From positions 10,236 through 74,235 of the forward strand of contig CBFIGS010000008.1 of NCBI GenBank assembly GCA_965662295.1: a DNA stretch of 64,000 bases, written 5' to 3'. Each line of letters starts with the position of its first letter. Positions within the stretch are counted from its first letter, which is position 1. Both the position numbers and the translations under genes were made by a program. Positions 16,440 to 21,350 of this stretch are shown here, one piece after another. A model generated the notes under the pieces. The model did not search any database. It saw nothing but the letters and a program-made list of their open reading frames with translations, and had not been told where the DNA came from. The DNA is from Polaribacter sp. Its GTDB lineage: Bacteria; Bacteroidota; Bacteroidia; Flavobacteriales; Flavobacteriaceae.

Positions 16440-16470
16440 AAAAATACAAAACAAAGGTTTTGGATTTTTA
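16440..16470. terminator. Bidirectional terminator, repeat copy A
   Basis: AAAAAtaCAAAAC-aaag-GTTTTGgaTTTTT between convergent lrp and DUF3857. Confidence 0.7.
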
Positions 16471-18423
16471 AATTCTTTCTATTTCTATAAAAGAATCTTG
16501 AACATTGATCAATTTTTTATAAAACTGCTTTAGGTAAAAGTACTCATCAGCAGAGTAGCTTTTTTTATTCAACGAATATTTTAAATATATATTGATCGTA
16601 TTCCCTATCTGACTTGTGTTAAAAATGATTTTACCCCCTTTGTTAGGCAATGCCACACCCATATTTTTGGGAAGCTTAGCAATTTTGTATGTTTCGGGAA
16701 TTATGAGCTTCATTAAATAGGTTTTGCTTCTCTCATACCCAAAATCAACAGGATAATCTCTTTTATTTAATTTAAACGGATTTACACCAATCCTGTCAAT
16801 TACAAAAGGGTTCAACCTTATCCTGCGACTCCCCATGACATCTGTTTCAATAGTTATTTTATATGATTCATTGAGTGCTTTGTCATTGTCATCTAAATTT
16901 TCCAATGCAACATCTTCCACTTCAATATTTGGATAGTTATTTTCAAAGTCTTCTAAAATATCATCCTCCGACAAGCCGTCAAATTCTACTCTTTTATGTA
17001 CAGCAAAATAACCTGTTCTTTTAATTGACAAATCCCCAACGAAGGAATCATCTTTAAGAAGCAAAGACAACCTAATTGTTTTGGATGTCTTTTGTCTTAG
17101 ATTAATCTGCTCCCAAAAACTTCCATTTTTAAAATCCATCACTCTTCCTTCTCCATTTAAACTCTCAGATTGGATAAAGCCGAATCCCAAATATTTATTT
17201 ACAGCATCTAAAAAGTAGATCTGATTATTAATTACAGCCCTCACAACCATATAATTAAACTCAGAGATTACCGGATGTAATTTTGTAGGAATTTCCCGAT
17301 CTCTTGTTGACAAGAGTACCAACTTACTCTCAATGTTTGCCGCCTGCAACGCAAAGTACAATGATAAATTAATCTCAAAAACACTTCCTAGTTTGTTTTT
17401 AAATGCTTTTTTAACCTCTACTTTTCTGTTAACCCCGTATTTTTCATTCCATGTATAATGGTTTTGTACCCTTTTATAAATTTGCTTTGCCCTCTCTAAG
17501 CTATTCTCAGAATTCAAACTTGCCTCACTTGATAGATTCTCTTTAAAATATCTCTTTTTTAAATATTGACCAGATAAAAAATACGTTTCCAATTTTTTAT
17601 CTACAGCTTTCCATGTTTTTGTATAATTGGTGACCTGTCCTCCAAAATGGGTTCGTGATATTAATTTAAAAGAGAGTCGAGACACATAATTGTCTAGACT
17701 CAACATATAGTCCTCCTTTTTAAATGCCGGAACAGCATCCATTCCATATTCTAAAACACCACAAGGGCCTGTTCCAATTCCTGGCAAGTAAAAACAACCA
17801 TTTTTCACACGAAAATTTTCTCTATGCAACTTTAAATTTCCCACAAGTCGAATATTATACTTAAAATTTCCTATGATAGCTGCTGTAAAATCACTTTTTA
17901 ACTTTGGGATATCAGATTGATATTTCCAATCATCTATTTGTGGATAAGGAGAGATTAATGAATACCGAAATTCAATCACACTCCCAACTTTTATATTTGG
18001 CAGGGTAAAGTAAGTTTCTTTCCATTTTCCAGACAAATCTTTTGTATAAATTTTATCCTTTTCCAAACTCGTTGTATGCATGACATTATTCTCAGTTAAA
18101 TTATTTGTTACCGCCTGAATATCATACACTTCTTGTTCATCATAAAACGGAATTTTAATAGTCGCTTTATCAAAACCAGTTGTCTTCAAAATTTTTATTC
18201 TAAAATAAAAATCGGTTGTAAATTTATATTTAAATTTATCTTTTTTATTCATGTAATAATTACCGTGTTCGTATAAAACGACGGCACGTGCAGTTGTATC
18301 CTTTTGATATACTTGCATCTTTAACTCCTCTATGGTTGTTTTGCCCATCGTTGTCGATTTCTTGCTTTGTCCAAAACAAAAAACAACAACAAAACTAAAG
18401 GCCAATACTAATTTTAACTTCAT
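16468..18423 (-). CDS. DUF3857 / transglutaminase-like exported protein (catalytic Cys and His apparently absent)
   Basis: Signal peptide, GSVIEFRY, WKYQSDIP, C-terminal PVDFGY and LPK segments typical of DUF3857/DUF3858 proteins. Confidence 0.82.
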   Translation of the reverse strand: MKLKLVLAFSFVVVFCFGQSKKSTTMGKTTIEELKMQVYQKDTTARAVVLYEHGNYYMNKKDKFKYKFTTDFYFRIKILKTTGFDKATIKIPFYDEQEVYDIQAVTNNLTENNVMHTTSLEKDKIYTKDLSGKWKETYFTLPNIKVGSVIEFRYSLISPYPQIDDWKYQSDIPKLKSDFTAAIIGNFKYNIRLVGNLKLHRENFRVKNGCFYLPGIGTGPCGVLEYGMDAVPAFKKEDYMLSLDNYVSRLSFKLISRTHFGGQVTNYTKTWKAVDKKLETYFLSGQYLKKRYFKENLSSEASLNSENSLERAKQIYKRVQNHYTWNEKYGVNRKVEVKKAFKNKLGSVFEINLSLYFALQAANIESKLVLLSTRDREIPTKLHPVISEFNYMVVRAVINNQIYFLDAVNKYLGFGFIQSESLNGEGRVMDFKNGSFWEQINLRQKTSKTIRLSLLLKDDSFVGDLSIKRTGYFAVHKRVEFDGLSEDDILEDFENNYPNIEVEDVALENLDDNDKALNESYKITIETDVMGSRRIRLNPFVIDRIGVNPFKLNKRDYPVDFGYERSKTYLMKLIIPETYKIAKLPKNMGVALPNKGGKIIFNTSQIGNTINIYLKYSLNKKSYSADEYFYLKQFYKKLINVQDSFIEIERI

Positions 18424-18464
18424 AACTTTTTTTTACTAGAATTGTATGTAATCTTGAGGCTTCG

Positions 18465-20387
18465 TTAAGTTTTTATCAATGCTATTCTTAAATTGTCATT
18501 CTTAGCAACTTTACGTCTAAAAGCTCTGTAAGTTTTATAATCCTCTTTAGGATATAATCCTTCTTTAATAAATAAAATACGCTTGTATTTTATGTGATGC
18601 TTGTCAATTTTATCAATTGAAATTTGATACATACCAAATTTATTGATGATGGACTTGTCTTCAAACAGAGCTTCTACTTGATATCCTTTTGGAATTTCAA
18701 TAATAGACTCATCTTCATCCTTATAACCTCTTGGAATTAGAAGGGGTAATTTCCGATTTCTATATCTTTTGGGTATAAAACTATTTTTATTAAAAAAATT
18801 GACCCTAAAAAGTATTTCTGCATCAGTAATAGTTGCATAATCTTCTATTGAAATTGAAAAATCTTCCGTAAAAATAACCTGCTCTTTATCATTTTTTAAT
18901 TTCACAGACTCAACTTCTAAATTGTTATTGTAGCTCCAAACCTCAGATTTATAAAGCTTAATTAATGTTTCTTTTGGATACCTATCGTAATTATGTCTAT
19001 TATAAAAATTCAATCCTTTTGATACCCTTTCTAAAGTTGCTTGTATGGTCCCTTTTTCGTCTAATCGAATCGTTGCTTTTGTGGTTTGTAAGTTTGTTTC
19101 ATTTTTATAAGAGGGTGTTCTTTTTATAATCCCTCCCTCTGGAGTTATAACAAGTACATCTCTATCATCAGTAAAATCTCCTAAAAAACCAAATGGAATG
19201 GTTTGATCGGTACATTCTAACCAGATGTCATTTCCTCCAGTAAGCTCAGAAGCAGGAATATTTAGTATAGCATGATTCCCTTGAAAAGTTACAAAATCTT
19301 TATCGATATTTCTTTTTTGTTTCGCATAAACCAGGGTGTAATAAGAGGTTATTCCAACTGCAGCTAACAATGCTTTTGTGTAATTTGTTAGTCCTTTACA
19401 GTCTCCATAACCTACTTTGTCAACTTTATTTGCAGCAATTGGTTGCCACCCCCCAATACCAATACTTACGTTAATATATCGTGTTTTATTTTGCACAAAC
19501 TCATAAACAAGTTTTGCTTTCTCTGTGGGATTATCTACATCTTTTACCAAGTCTTTTATTTTTGTAACCGTTGCTGGCTCTAAAATATCTCGTCCTGATA
19601 TTAAATAATCATTTTGCCATTTTCCAAATTCTTTCCAATTAGAAACATATCCTTTTACTCCTTTTAATGAAAAATCATTTGAAGCAACCATTAAATTAGG
19701 CATGAAATCTCTCGAAGGAATTGCATGTACTTCTGGTTTTATTGCTGGTTGATTTTCAAATATATAATGTAAATTAAATTCTGAAGATTTATCTTGAATA
19801 GGGTAATTCTTAAAATTTTTCTTTTTTGTTCTAACAATGATTTTTAAGGGATTATTCAGTTTGTACTGACTTTTTTCTATCCCAACATAATATCCTTTTA
19901 CAGGATACCATCTTGGAATAAAACCTGTAGTAGAGGTTTTATATTCCGATTCAAACACAACAGTGTAGGGATAAGCAACAGGAGTATACGTTACAGATTT
20001 AACTCTTGCATCTGAATATAAGGTTTCACCTCCTATGGCACTTACATCTGAAAATTTTCTTTTCGAATATTTTTTTATTTCCCTTCCTAAAGCATCATAA
20101 ATTTTAGCAGAAAGTTTTGTTAATTTAGTATCATTATTATACCCTTTTGCTATTCTTACGTATATATTTCCAAATTCATTTAGAACTGTTACAACTTTTT
20201 TTTCATACACAACCATTTTGTCGATTGCTTCAATAGTAATCTCTGTAGTACTATTTCTAATAACTGCATTAGCATTCTTTGTCAACTCATTGGAAATCAA
20301 AGCTGAAGCGTAAATATTTTCTTGGGAAAAAATTAAATTACAGGTAAATAATAATATTAGAAATAAAATTCTTGTAGGGTATTTCAT
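18465..20387 (-). CDS. DUF3857 / transglutaminase-like exported protein
   Basis: Signal peptide from ATG 20387; YEFVQNKTRY, GGWQP, YGDCKGL, NHAIL, WLECT. Confidence 0.85.
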   Translation of the reverse strand: MKYPTRILFLILLFTCNLIFSQENIYASALISNELTKNANAVIRNSTTEITIEAIDKMVVYEKKVVTVLNEFGNIYVRIAKGYNNDTKLTKLSAKIYDALGREIKKYSKRKFSDVSAIGGETLYSDARVKSVTYTPVAYPYTVVFESEYKTSTTGFIPRWYPVKGYYVGIEKSQYKLNNPLKIIVRTKKKNFKNYPIQDKSSEFNLHYIFENQPAIKPEVHAIPSRDFMPNLMVASNDFSLKGVKGYVSNWKEFGKWQNDYLISGRDILEPATVTKIKDLVKDVDNPTEKAKLVYEFVQNKTRYINVSIGIGGWQPIAANKVDKVGYGDCKGLTNYTKALLAAVGITSYYTLVYAKQKRNIDKDFVTFQGNHAILNIPASELTGGNDIWLECTDQTIPFGFLGDFTDDRDVLVITPEGGIIKRTPSYKNETNLQTTKATIRLDEKGTIQATLERVSKGLNFYNRHNYDRYPKETLIKLYKSEVWSYNNNLEVESVKLKNDKEQVIFTEDFSISIEDYATITDAEILFRVNFFNKNSFIPKRYRNRKLPLLIPRGYKDEDESIIEIPKGYQVEALFEDKSIINKFGMYQISIDKIDKHHIKYKRILFIKEGLYPKEDYKTYRAFRRKVAKNDNLRIALIKT

Positions 20388-20421
20388 GAAGTTTTTCTTT
20401 TTTATAGCACTGCAATATAAT

Positions 20422-20454
20422 AAAAAAACCCAAAACAAAGGTTTTGGGTTTTTT
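20422..20454 (-). terminator. Intrinsic terminator of the yceI-CDGSH unit, repeat copy B
   Basis: AAAAAACCCAAAAC-aaag-GTTTTGGGTTTTTT perfect 14-bp stem. Confidence 0.85.
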
Positions 20455-20481: not shown

Positions 20482-20574
20482 CTATTTATTTAAATGCGAT
20501 CCATCACAATATCCATTAGGGTCTGACGTATTACCACATCCACAAGTTGGTCTATCGATTTTAGTTGATTCCAT
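20482..20574 (-). CDS. 30-aa CDGSH iron-sulfur motif mini-protein
   Basis: Manual translation MESTKIDRPTCGCGNTSDPNGYCDGSHLNK*, with CxC...CDGSH ligand set; 27 nt downstream of yceI and followed by a terminator. Below the track's length cutoff. Confidence 0.8.
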   Translation of the reverse strand: MESTKIDRPTCGCGNTSDPNGYCDGSHLNK

Positions 20575-20601
20575 ATTTTTATAGTTTAAAATTAGTATTC
20601 G

Positions 20602-21237
20602 TTATCTAAGAACAACAACAAAAGACATCTCCATTAAGTCATTTATAAATTTATCTTTCAATCCTTCAATCCATCTTTTAGACCCATATTTTACATTAAA
20701 ATCTGCTCTATCCACATTAAAAACATCACTCTTAAAAGAAGTTACTCCTGCTTCTGTAGAAATCGTTGCAGGAATTGTAATGCTCTTGGTAACGTCTTTA
20801 ATTTGAAGGTTCCCTGTTACTGCTAATTTCCCTTCAGTTTCTTCTACCTTGGTAATTACAAATTTAGAGGTAGGATACACAGCAATGTCAAAAAAATCAG
20901 GTGCTTTTAAGTGACCTTCTAGGTTTTGTGCCCCATCAGTTCCTGCCATGTCTAGGTTTGTAATGGTACTCATATCTATGACAAACTCACCTCCTTTTAA
21001 AACCCCTTCTTCTAGCAACATCCCTCCGCTTTTTAGAGCGACGGTCCCATTATGAGAACCTGTAGGCTTACTCCCTTTCCATGTTAACACAGAAACGGCC
21101 GTATCTATATTATTTAGGTCAGCAATATTTGTTTCAACTTTTTCAGCTTCGTTTACTGCTACTTTTTCTTTCTTCTCTCCTTTACACGCTGTTAAAAGTG
21201 ATGCGACAATCAGTATTGATAAAACTATTTTTTTCAT
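20602..21237 (-). CDS. YceI family lipoprotein
   Basis: Lipobox LLTAC; SVLTWKG, HNGTV, HLKAPDFFD, GNLQIKDVTK. -7 box TATATTTG at 21270-21277 lies too close to ATG 21267, so ATG 21237 was chosen. Confidence 0.88.
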   Translation of the reverse strand: MKKIVLSILIVASLLTACKGEKKEKVAVNEAEKVETNIADLNNIDTAVSVLTWKGSKPTGSHNGTVALKSGGMLLEEGVLKGGEFVIDMSTITNLDMAGTDGAQNLEGHLKAPDFFDIAVYPTSKFVITKVEETEGKLAVTGNLQIKDVTKSITIPATISTEAGVTSFKSDVFNVDRADFNVKYGSKRWIEGLKDKFINDLMEMSFVVVLR

Positions 21238-21350
21238 TTTAATGTTGATTTTAAATTTATTTTCCATGGCAAATATATGCTTTTTATTTTCCTTGGAAAA
21301 TAAAAAAGTATTTTTTTAGATAATATTAACACTTGTCGAAAATAGAAAGG

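Follow-up and report, generated by a model that had tools for sequence, protein, structure and literature searches.

Results

The mini-CDGSH open reading frame and its transcription unit

The window, by which is meant the whole 64,000-nucleotide stretch of Polaribacter DNA that was analysed, contains on its minus strand a short open reading frame for a peptide of 30 amino acids, MESTKIDRPTCGCGNTSDPNGYCDGSHLNK (nt 20482–20574, ATG at 20574–20572, TAG stop at 20484–20482), for which a single start codon is possible. Pattern matching and two alignments, A1 and A2, delimited within it a ligand module of 17 residues, C11-G-C13-G-N-T-S-D-P-N-G-Y-C23-D-G-S-H27 (codons at nt 20494–20544, minus strand). 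The back-translated motif occurred once in the window and not at all in 100 shuffles. The ligands are spaced C11-x-C13-x9-C23-DGS-H27, which is one residue longer than in a canonical CDGSH domain: nine residues separate the second and third cysteines in 119 of 119 mini modules, whereas canonical modules in the same data have eight. The chain terminates three residues past H27, and no signal peptide was visible in the ten residues ahead of C11. The original prediction had described a stand-alone 30-residue ORF, 3' of yceI, that amounts to little more than the CDGSH ligand loop, with a C-x-C-x9-CDGSH spacing and no signal peptide; coordinates and translation agreed exactly, and both the spacing and the lack of a signal peptide were confirmed.

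The identical peptide sequence was found on 34 contigs in public protein collections. Searches with Pfam and NCBIfam profiles gave no match to the window peptide (Pfam E≤1). Some members of the family are labelled "CDGSH-type Zn-finger protein" in IMG, and the NCBI label is "hypothetical".

The gene upstream on the same strand (nt 20602–21267) encodes a lipoprotein of the YceI family (Pfam PF04264, E=3.3e-23), bacterial lipocalins that bind polyisoprenoids or quinones and that are among the commonest bacterial proteins of unclear function. Its true start is likely the ATG at nt 21237, which would give MKKIVLSILIVASLLTAC, with a lipobox cysteine. Gene order in the window is rsgA-dtd-yceI-peptide, with no regulator adjoining. 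Just upstream of yceI, a candidate Bacteroidota −7 promoter box, TAtaTTTG (nt 21270–21277, minus strand), was read from the sequence; we take it to correspond to the Bacteroidetes TAnnTTTG consensus. It weakly suggests that yceI may have its own promoter downstream of dtd, and no clear −33 box accompanies it.

Between the yceI stop codon and the start of the mini-ORF lie 27 A/T-rich nucleotides (nt 20575–20601, minus strand) that hold no terminator. This spacer is longer than in most other lineages, where the peptide ATG comes −1 to +5 nt after the yceI stop (37 of 57 cases). Twenty-seven nt downstream of the mini-ORF starts a bidirectional intrinsic terminator hairpin, AAAAAACCCAAAAC-loop-GTTTTGGGTTTTTT (nt 20423–20454, 14 bp stem), which closes the yceI–mini-CDGSH unit; the hairpin scan returned two sites, versus 0.5 expected in shuffles. 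The proposed co-transcription of the mini-ORF with yceI is supported by this predicted arrangement, in which no terminator separates the two genes and a hairpin follows the second.

Evidence for a conserved protein-coding family

Orthologues of the mini-ORF were detected in 13 of 37 Polaribacter genomes, at 70–88% identity and always directly after yceI. Among cultured Polaribacter, strains Hel1_33_78 and Hel1_33_96 carry an orthologue. Most Polaribacter keep yceI without the peptide, which is missing in two thirds of the species, and one species has a decayed relic of the peptide gene. The peptide is therefore dispensable for YceI. A search of public genomes with a back-translated DNA pattern gave at least 126 matches in at least 120 loci, and 72 matches at E<1e-3 were obtained in a representative library; the family spans three phyla. 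The tblastn-type check of conservation that had been suggested was thus positive, both within Polaribacter and in public genomes.

Short open frames surround every match among those listed (126 of 126), and an ATG sits 3–14 codons ahead of the motif in the 126 matches listed. In stand-alone forms a stop codon follows 2–6 codons past the motif (in a few, as many as about 20), and fused or tandem forms read on in frame. Inspection of the 13 Polaribacter orthologues revealed 9, 10 and 21 variable sites, out of 24, at the first, second and third codon positions, the third being about twice as variable as the other two. All synonymous codons occur at the residues that never change (Cys, Gly, Asp and His), and the pooled pS of the family was 0.79, versus a pN of 0.20. 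The family shows protein-level purifying selection, keeps its start and stop codons, and is syntenic. On these comparative grounds, the mini-CDGSH ORF belongs to a genuine, conserved protein-coding family.

Could the ORF nevertheless be non-functional as a protein, being a chance or decaying frame, a 3'-UTR element of yceI, or the precursor of a RiPP? Its very short length would agree with this, as would its absence from two thirds of Polaribacter species and the one relic pseudogene. However, the protein is under strong purifying selection with three-base periodicity, and the module has been kept across three phyla, with in-frame fusions to three protein families, so we consider such a reading extremely improbable. 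The RiPP precursor was rejected as a candidate, no recurrent radical-SAM, cyclodehydratase or other maturase gene being present in the neighbourhoods listed.

Relation to CDGSH domains

The mini family has in common with CDGSH domains (CISD, PF09360, the domain of mitoNEET and CISD1–3) the order C-x-C...C-D-G-(S/A/T)-H, with three cysteines and one histidine, and an aromatic residue before the third cysteine. Among 50–60 aligned members, C11, C13, C23, D24, G25 and H27 are invariant, and S26 is conserved in at least 90%. T16, which answers to the Ser/Thr at position 7 of the CDGSH motif, is invariant in alignment A2 and at least 90% conserved in A1, and G14 and G21 are also invariant columns in both alignments.

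Differences were found around this shared core. Locally, the mini family reads Pro-x-Gly-(Y/F/N/H), with the proline shifted and an invariant glycine inserted, whereas CDGSH domains have P11 followed by a hydrophobic position 12; the x9 spacing does occur in domain 1 of a bona fide two-domain CDGSH protein (P0101). At position 1, which is hydrophobic in CDGSH, the mini family has Lys, Thr or Met. Three elements of CDGSH are missing altogether, namely the N-strand, the P motif with its lid proline (G-P-hydrophobic-x-hydrophobic) and the β-sandwich dimerisation module, and stand-alone members have only 3–14 residues, mostly polar or basic, ahead of the first cysteine and 2–6 after the histidine. 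The iron-sulfur module of CDGSH requires the N-strand, the lid proline and the β-sandwich (Lin et al. 2011, PMC3174974), and the mini family was not found in the seven-type CDGSH classification or the supplementary alignments of that study, whose types 3–7 are bacterial.

Profile and structure searches pointed towards CDGSH at low scores. The window peptide falls below the gathering threshold of Pfam zf-CDGSH (29.5 bits) and was not among the genome-wide matches at E≤10. For tandem forms, zf-CDGSH was the top Pfam match, with 15 bits, over profile positions 31–48 only. When the family profile was run against the PDB, the only matches that aligned on the motif were the bacterial CDGSH structures 3tbm (E=0.07) and 3tbn (E=0.29). 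AF2 models, of low confidence (pLDDT 68 for the window peptide, 57 for a natural tandem form), consisted of a small β-hairpin knuckle with no other regular secondary structure, and the single Foldseek match of the AF2 model, the type-3 CDGSH protein 3tbo, was not significant (E=3.2). The best explanation of these resemblances appears to be that the module derives from a CDGSH (NEET-type) cluster cradle and has lost the surrounding fold.

The module may be read differently, as a knuckle in which Zn(II) has a structural role or as a rubredoxin-like site with a single Fe, and so as a small adaptor that resembles SEC-C in size and ligand pattern. It would then mediate contacts between proteins or with the membrane, for instance by tethering or regulating its fusion partners (YceI precursor, FMN reductase, RicT-like protein), or it might act as a thiol redox switch that releases zinc under oxidative or electrophile stress. 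A hydrophobic core is lacking from this tiny Cys3His module, unrelated proteins carry it at one end or the other, and in tandem forms the modules are beads on flexible Pro/Ala-rich linkers, as is typical of zinc knuckles. The elements called necessary for the CDGSH cluster site are missing, the low-confidence AF2 model gives a small β-hairpin knuckle only, and the surroundings of HxlR/MarR electrophile-stress genes would fit a redox switch too. In contrast, the conserved D-G-S between the third cysteine and the histidine and the Thr at position 7 would be superfluous in a knuckle and are a hallmark of the 2Fe-2S cradle. The IMG name "Zn-finger" also speaks for zinc, but CDGSH itself was first misnamed a zinc finger.

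Comparison with SEC-C (PF02810) is instructive here, as it too is an autonomous CxCG...C/H module of about 20 residues, located at the termini of diverse proteins or stand-alone, and its metal, Zn or Fe, is debated. Its ligand spacing is CxC-x8-C-H/C, the last ligands being adjacent, whereas the mini family has x9 and C-DGS-H, with the histidine three residues past the cysteine position. The partners of SEC-C belong to the secretion machinery, those of the mini family are YceI and a flavin reductase. The PF02810 profile gave no match even at E≤10, and there was no Pfam match to another zinc finger either. We therefore regard a zinc knuckle or mononuclear iron site as rather unlikely, and retain a CDGSH-derived cluster cradle as the working interpretation.

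Association with YceI

The linkage to YceI, suspected from the arrangement in the window, turned out to be real and strong. Of the 126 matches listed, 60 directly follow a yceI gene that is read in the same direction. No yceI was found on the opposite strand, and one downstream of the motif was always the fused domain. Several independent fusions place the module N-terminal to YceI, joined by a hydrophobic helix (loci L013, L041, L062, L072, L082, L105 and L118), and YceI fusions were present in about 10 of the 37 positive genomes of an order-wide sample. The pair moves between contexts, having been found in at least four unrelated chromosomal settings, and the module itself is portable, existing alone, in tandem, and in N-terminal or C-terminal position. 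From the gene arrangement, the peptide and YceI often appear to be translationally coupled in tight operons. A literature search found no paper connecting CDGSH with YceI.

Two ideas concerning classical CDGSH genes were rejected. A classical Fer4_19-CDGSH gene is located directly upstream of yceI at locus L195, in a dioxygenase/carboxylesterase operon; as a general rule, proximity of classical CDGSH genes to yceI did not hold (1 of 30 loci). The mini form is not a substitute for classical CDGSH in streamlined genomes either. In Polaribacter, classical CDGSH was found in 1 of 13 mini-positive versus 6 of 24 mini-negative genomes, and of 31 other Flavobacteriales genomes with the mini form, about 14 have classical CDGSH as well.

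Redox genes in the neighbourhood

A gene for an NADPH-FMN reductase (FMN_red) lies directly downstream of the module in 16 of the loci listed, and in 12 of them the stop of the peptide gene and the start of the reductase gene overlap by 1 nt. In one protein (P0084) the mini module is fused to FMN_red, and a C-terminal fusion to a PSP1/RicT-like protein was also observed. Neighbours confirmed by Pfam are pirin, DoxX, nitroreductase, HxlR, MarR, rhodanese and VOC dioxygenase; the rhodanese gene is divergently transcribed in 19 of the loci listed, and XRE, MarR or HxlR regulators adjoin the modules. Because MarR/HxlR/XRE regulators, pirin and DoxX lie beside the modules, the theme of the neighbourhood, as far as gene content tells, is quinone/oxidative stress. 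For the iron-sensor role that had been put forward no specific support was obtained; the genomic context points instead to quinone/flavin redox chemistry.

A similar gathering of genes is known from Firmicutes. There, the MhqR, YodB, CatR and QsrR regulons, whose theme is quinone/electrophile stress, consist of azoreductase/FMN reductase, nitroreductase, DoxX-like and dioxygenase genes controlled by MarR/HxlR-type repressors. The cast of neighbours of the mini modules (MarR/HxlR, FMN reductase, nitroreductase, DoxX, pirin, VOC dioxygenase) is the same. We know of no CDGSH-like peptide or YceI among the core members of the Firmicutes regulons.

The neighbourhood also bears on a reading in which the peptide binds a labile [2Fe-2S] cluster and takes no part in a quinone relay, serving rather as a donor, store or sensor of clusters or iron that repairs or loads Fe-S or iron-dependent partners under oxidative stress. 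RicT relatives carry Fe-S clusters, and the fusion with the PSP1/RicT-like protein, like the divergent gene for a sulfur-transferring rhodanese in 19 of the loci listed, would suit such a role. An exposed cluster would be labile, and NEET proteins are known cluster donors (PMC9490426). However, neither of the main partners, YceI or FMN reductase, is an Fe-S protein, YceI is an exported protein and the peptide a cytoplasmic one, and the neighbourhoods listed contain no recurrent Isc, Suf or iron-uptake genes. This role is in our opinion improbable.

Comparison with the YceI/BcnA-cytochrome b561 pair

YceI/BcnA and cytochrome b561 (LcoA) have been proposed to form a quinone-based system for the detoxification of lipid peroxyls (Naguib et al. 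2022, PMC9113575), and GNA1030, a YceI homologue, binds ubiquinone-8 (PMC9113575). The BcnA/LcoA pair and the window pair both combine an exported barrel of the YceI family with a small redox partner, putative in the case of the window, that is adjacent or in some lineages fused. Both are placed in an oxidative/quinone-stress setting, and the proposed logic is the same, namely that the partner would re-reduce the quinone used by YceI. For the window protein, export is indicated by the PF04264 match (E=3e-23) together with the lipoprotein signal MKKIVLSILIVASLLTAC.

The partners themselves differ. In the window it is the Cys3His peptide of 30 residues, predicted to stay on the cytoplasmic side, whereas LcoA/YceJ is a di-haem transmembrane cytochrome. 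In flavobacteria yceI precedes its partner, whereas in proteobacteria the cytochrome gene is upstream. No cytochrome b561 (PF01292) was found in this genome; it is missing in 33 of 37 relatives and present in 4. Within Polaribacter, the notion that the peptide and cytochrome b561 complement each other as partners of YceI was not supported, most species having neither.

Discussion

The reading that we favour, a plausible one though we stop short of calling it probable, is that the peptide is a cytoplasmic, autonomous metal module of about 20 residues, with a putative [2Fe-2S] cluster, that relays electrons from flavin to the membrane quinone used by YceI. Binding of [2Fe-2S] is proposed because the CDGSH/Thr signature is conserved and the neighbours are redox enzymes. 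Probably by forming a homo-oligomer or by docking on a partner, the peptide would hold a solvent-exposed, redox-active cluster where the inner membrane faces the cytoplasm. The cluster would take electrons from reduced flavin produced by the FMN reductase and hand them on to the membrane isoprenoid quinone. The quinol would then serve the periplasmic or lipoprotein YceI barrel in the quenching of oxidised lipids or quinones in the envelope, and the peptide would occupy the place that cytochrome b561 (LcoA/YceJ) has beside YceI/BcnA of proteobacteria.

A single cytoplasmic cluster cannot cross the membrane with electrons, so that the link to a periplasmic YceI would depend on quinone diffusion, a step that we purely infer. 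In the fusion proteins, the hydrophobic helix would keep the module within the cell and place YceI on the outside, and these are the compartments expected for the separate products of the window.

mitoNEET reduces O2 or ubiquinone with electrons taken from FMNH2 (PMC9490426), and the proposed relay would parallel its in vitro FMNH2-to-ubiquinone activity. This electron shuttle sits on the membrane by one N-terminal helix (PMC9490426), and the YceI-fused mini modules have a hydrophobic helix as well.

A [2Fe-2S] cluster with 20 residues to hold it would be strongly exposed, and labile under the aerobic conditions of the cell.

Because a conserved gene reduced to the motif is consistently coupled or fused to YceI in marine flavobacteria, the peptide is a candidate for the smallest of all natural redox modules based on iron and sulfur. 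In its fullest form, which we put forward as a doubtful but possible extension, the 25–30-residue peptide would be the smallest natural Fe-S protein, a fold-free cradle of about 20 residues with a redox-active [2Fe-2S] cluster, probably oligomerising or docking. Together with NADPH-FMN reductase and YceI it would constitute an unrecognised flavin-cluster-quinone system, replacing b561 and shielding the envelope of flavobacteria of the sunlit ocean from quinone and lipid-peroxidation stress.

A widespread family that is under selection and keeps only the ligand loop of 17–18 residues offers a direct test of the requirement for the N-strand, the lid proline and the β-sandwich dimer. If the loop binds 2Fe-2S, it would be a minimal natural Fe-S peptide, of relevance to the NEET mechanism, to protein design and to models of early evolution. 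Pfam and NCBIfam are blind to the family, and a curated family model would annotate hundreds of marine genomes. The genes for YceI, the peptide and FMN reductase make up a simple three-gene system suited to reconstitution in vitro. Finally, with the peptide YceI gains a second, independent candidate redox partner to which it is genetically locked, by adjacency as well as by fusion, and the case for YceI proteins acting in quinone redox chemistry becomes stronger.

The mini-ORF and its transcription unit

The mini-ORF MESTKIDRPTCGCGNTSDPNGYCDGSHLNK occupies positions 20574–20482 on the minus strand and has 30 codons, from ATG to TAG. It starts 27 nt after the stop codon of a YceI-family gene (20602–21267, minus strand; Pfam PF04264, E=3e-23) and ends 27 nt before a bidirectional hairpin terminator of 14 bp (20423–20454). 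Its motif CxC-x9-CDGSH, back-translated, had one match in the window and none in 100 shuffles. Re-reading of the window found the original prediction, a 30-aa protein carrying this motif between yceI and the terminator, to be right in every detail. Co-transcription with yceI, which it had considered probable, was also borne out: no terminator-like element was seen between the two genes in the window, so that they almost certainly form a single transcript.

The listed yceI ORF starts at ATG 21267, immediately preceded by a TAtaTTTG box (21277–21270, minus strand), a candidate that we take to be similar to the Bacteroidota −7 promoter element. A second ATG, at 21237 (minus strand), yields a textbook lipoprotein signal, MKKIVLSILIVASLLTAC. 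Since the box precedes ATG 21267 and the lipoprotein signal is obtained from ATG 21237, translation of yceI probably starts at 21237, and yceI and the peptide may be transcribed, downstream of dtd, from a promoter of their own. The terminator is directly followed by two tandem paralogues of ~650 aa each (DUF3857/transglutaminase-core/DUF3858; 16468–20438, minus strand); in several Polaribacter species this gene pair shows synteny with the peptide.

Conservation and coding status

Of 61 related genomes covered by a translated search, 37 are Polaribacter, and 13 of these carry the mini-ORF, at 70–88% identity. Every copy has an ATG and a stop codon, and the gene just before it is always yceI. 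Comparison of these orthologues showed variation at 9, 10 and 21 of 24 sites for codon positions 1, 2 and 3, respectively.

A DNA pattern, the back-translated motif, was then scanned over ~186,000 species genomes and gave at least 126 matches at no fewer than 120 loci. Every one of the 126 matches listed lies in an open frame with an ATG 3–14 codons upstream. Among them, stand-alone forms stop 2–6 codons past the motif (up to ~20 in a few), and in the remaining forms the frame stays open and leads to a second module or a fused domain. The 134 distinct nucleotide versions use all synonymous codons at the invariant Cys, Gly, Asp, His, Thr and Ser, with a pooled pS of 0.79 versus a pN of 0.20, a value biased by how the set was gathered. 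Such synonymous scatter is not explicable by selection at the DNA or RNA level. At the protein level, 1.8 billion representative proteins were searched exhaustively with HMMER, giving 72 matches at E<1e-3, nearly all 28–60 aa long.

Conservation, synteny and selection were the checks put forward with the original prediction, and judged by these comparisons the mini-ORF is a real gene, better supported than could be known at that time. That it is non-functional, or a RiPP precursor, is hardly credible in view of the selection on it, the in-frame fusions of the module and neighbourhoods without maturases.

Relation to CDGSH proteins

The family consensus is (D/E/N)(R/K)P(K)-C-G-C-G-(N/K)-T-x-(D/N)-(P)-x-G-(Y/F/N/H)-C-D-G-S-H-x-x-K. 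No variation was seen at the ligands (three Cys and one His), at the Asp-Gly of CDGSH or at the Gly two positions ahead of the third Cys; Gly14, Thr16 and Ser26 (numbering of the window peptide) are invariant or nearly so. The mini family keeps the ligands of the canonical 17-residue CDGSH motif, its Ser/Thr at position 7, DG(S) and usually the aromatic residue, whereas the hydrophobic position 1 is replaced by a basic or polar residue. In one and the same data set, canonical modules have 8 residues between the second and third Cys, whereas 119 of 119 mini modules have 9. The x9 spacing also occurs in domain 1 of P0101, an otherwise canonical two-domain CDGSH protein, so that the one-residue insertion is compatible with a true CDGSH site.

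Because the stand-alone protein stops three residues past the His, it leaves no room for the CDGSH N-strand, lid-proline P motif and beta-sandwich, which are present in all seven CISD types and held necessary for an integral domain (Lin et al., PMC3174974). The peptide was undetected by Pfam and NCBIfam models, and tandem members scored 15 bits at most against the Pfam CDGSH model (threshold 29.5), over its last 18 positions only. Against the PDB, the only matches of the family profile with the ligand motif aligned were the bacterial CDGSH proteins 3tbm (E=0.07) and 3tbn (E=0.29); the sole Foldseek match, obtained with a low-confidence AF2 model, was the type-3 CDGSH protein 3tbo (E=3.2). We conclude that the mini family either arose from the CDGSH cluster cradle or has closely converged on it. 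Under the structural criteria in the literature, as under Pfam, it is not a member of the CDGSH domain family.

This failure, a peptide without any fold, and tandem forms strung like beads on Pro/Ala linkers would suit a knuckle that binds Zn or mononuclear Fe and serves as adaptor or thiol switch, a reading that deserves weight and is nevertheless rather unlikely, the invariant DGS and Thr speaking against it. The metal and the oligomeric state of the peptide are points that we infer.

IMG labels some members 'CDGSH-type Zn-finger protein', one annotation pipeline thus already tagging them as CDGSH-type, and the NCBI label is hypothetical. No mini-type sequences were found in either of the two CISD classification papers or their supplementary alignments, and no paper on a CDGSH–YceI link was found in the literature searched. 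The family is a CDGSH-like module consisting of the motif alone; it has a spacing rule and a partner set of its own and lies outside any curated family or paper.

Coupling and fusion to YceI

The proposed tie to YceI held well beyond the window. Among the 126 motifs listed, 60 come right after a yceI gene of the same orientation; no yceI was seen on the opposite strand, and downstream it occurred only as a fused domain. As a control, 30 classical CDGSH loci in Bacteroidota were checked, and just one of them had a YceI neighbour. In 37 of 57 cases −1 to +5 nt separate the yceI stop from the peptide ATG, a spacing suggestive of translational coupling; in Polaribacter it is 11–54 nt.

Several lineages carry fusions of reversed order, in which the module is followed by a short basic linker, a hydrophobic helix of ~20 residues and the YceI barrel (loci L013, L041, L062, L072, L082, L105 and L118; in the Flavobacteriales sample, about 10 of its 37 positive genomes). 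As the domain order is reversed relative to the gene order, these are not read-through artefacts. By the positive-inside rule the fused module is predicted to be cytoplasmic and YceI outside, which matches the signal-less peptide and lipoprotein YceI of the window. In two gene calls of the representative library (P0105, P0058), the YceI C-terminus continues in frame into the peptide (e.g. ...DDIELEINLKLLNMNPNRPRCGCG...); these are either natural C-terminal fusions or frame/stop errors on short contigs.

Chromosomal settings and redox partners

Genomic context is the strongest result of the analysis. At least four chromosomal settings, unrelated to one another, harbour the yceI–peptide pair. 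Among the matches listed, MarR precedes yceI and the peptide, with a divergent rhodanese, at 20 loci; HxlR is divergent from the pair, or from the fusion gene, at about 10; and XRE is divergent from yceI, peptide and FMN reductase, in this order, at 12. In Polaribacter, including the window, the order is rsgA, dtd, yceI, peptide. A gene for an NADPH-dependent FMN reductase comes next after the peptide in 16 loci among the matches listed, its start overlapping the peptide stop by 1 nt in 12 of the 16, and a library protein (P0084) is a peptide–FMN reductase fusion. Elsewhere the peptide is followed by FMN reductase and then pirin, or stands beside HxlR with DoxX following. The module is also fused, as CHCGKTKNPNGNCDGSH, to the C-terminus of a PSP1/RicT-like protein of ~390 aa after a Lys-rich linker (locus L052, 2533–3732, plus strand; Pfam PSP1, E=2e-28); this form was found in seven or eight genomes, about 7 of them from one family, with frames of 383–400 aa.

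The one classical CDGSH locus with a YceI neighbour (L195, 810–3127, minus strand) encodes, in this order, a VOC/glyoxalase-type dioxygenase, a carboxylesterase-like protein, a 134-aa Fer4_19 plus classical CDGSH protein and a signal-peptide YceI. The Fer4_19–CDGSH gene is directly upstream of yceI, and the operon resembles hydroquinone detoxification. It shows that a full CDGSH protein can fill the same niche beside yceI.

Distribution and loss

The mini family is rare overall. It was present in 0 of 400 other genomes of an even Bacteroidota sample, and in 37 of 401 Flavobacteriales genomes (20 of 105 genera), mostly of 1–2.5 Mb. The matches listed came mainly from marine surface-water MAGs and single-cell genomes, and also from Chitinophagales, Spirosoma, Opitutales (tandem two-module proteins) and Paenibacillus. 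The Paenibacillus version has 25 aa, MGKCACGNTQNTEGNCDGSHAKKDK (L027, L035, L042, L065, L067, L068, L070, L075, L087, L095, L116 and L138); none of these 12 loci has YceI nearby and no consistent partner gene emerged, some having a nitroreductase gene within ~1 kb and others a gene for an SLH-type surface protein. Two Coraliomargaritaceae (Verrucomicrobiota) loci, L079 and L106, encode Ala/Glu/Pro-rich low-complexity proteins of ~190–200 aa with one module mid-protein. In a 94-aa library protein (P0057), three tandem modules follow an N-terminus that is rich in Arg and Ala and resembles an organellar transit peptide; the protein may be a eukaryotic (algal) member.

Within Polaribacter the peptide is an accessory gene, many species keeping the orthologous yceI with a terminator directly after it and no peptide between. 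Just downstream of yceI in one of the species (genome G012, locus L151) is a decayed relic, PRPFGCGLTSNFDENCDGSHTAK, without start codon, with the first Cys lost and a stop upstream; read as a remnant of the mini-ORF, it shows recent loss of the peptide with yceI retained. A profile search of the window's genome found no classical CDGSH protein; across genomes, the mini and classical forms are not mutually exclusive.

Proposed role

Lipocalins of the YceI family have polyisoprenoid ligands; for GNA1030, the homologue of N. meningitidis, the ligand is ubiquinone-8 (PMC9113575). Proteobacterial YceI lipocalins are genetically locked, and sometimes fused, to the cytochrome b561 LcoA, proposed to re-reduce quinone, the pair then quenching lipid peroxyl radicals (PMC9113575). 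MitoNEET, a CDGSH protein that sits on one membrane helix, takes electrons from the FMNH2 that a flavin reductase produces and hands them to O2 or ubiquinone (PMC9490426). Cytochrome b561 was not found in the window's genome, nor in 33 of 37 relatives.

The comparisons show that the ORF is coding, that its ligand signature is conserved, that the module is portable and that it is coupled and fused to YceI and FMN reductase. It is very probable that the peptide is a real metal-binding mini-protein functionally tied to YceI. That it donates a labile cluster or iron, and is not an electron relay, seems distinctly improbable. Because of the YceI–quinone and LcoA background, the FMNH2 activity of mitoNEET and the lack of cytochrome b561 here, we tentatively propose, at slightly less than even likelihood, a putative [2Fe-2S] relay from flavin to the quinone pool used by YceI. 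The peptide would be a cytoplasmic, membrane-proximal one-electron relay, its centre most likely [2Fe-2S]; we infer which way the electrons flow and that quinone carries them between compartments. It would thereby link NAD(P)H/flavin reduction to the membrane quinone pool on which the envelope YceI draws, and would belong to a quinone or oxidative-stress module.
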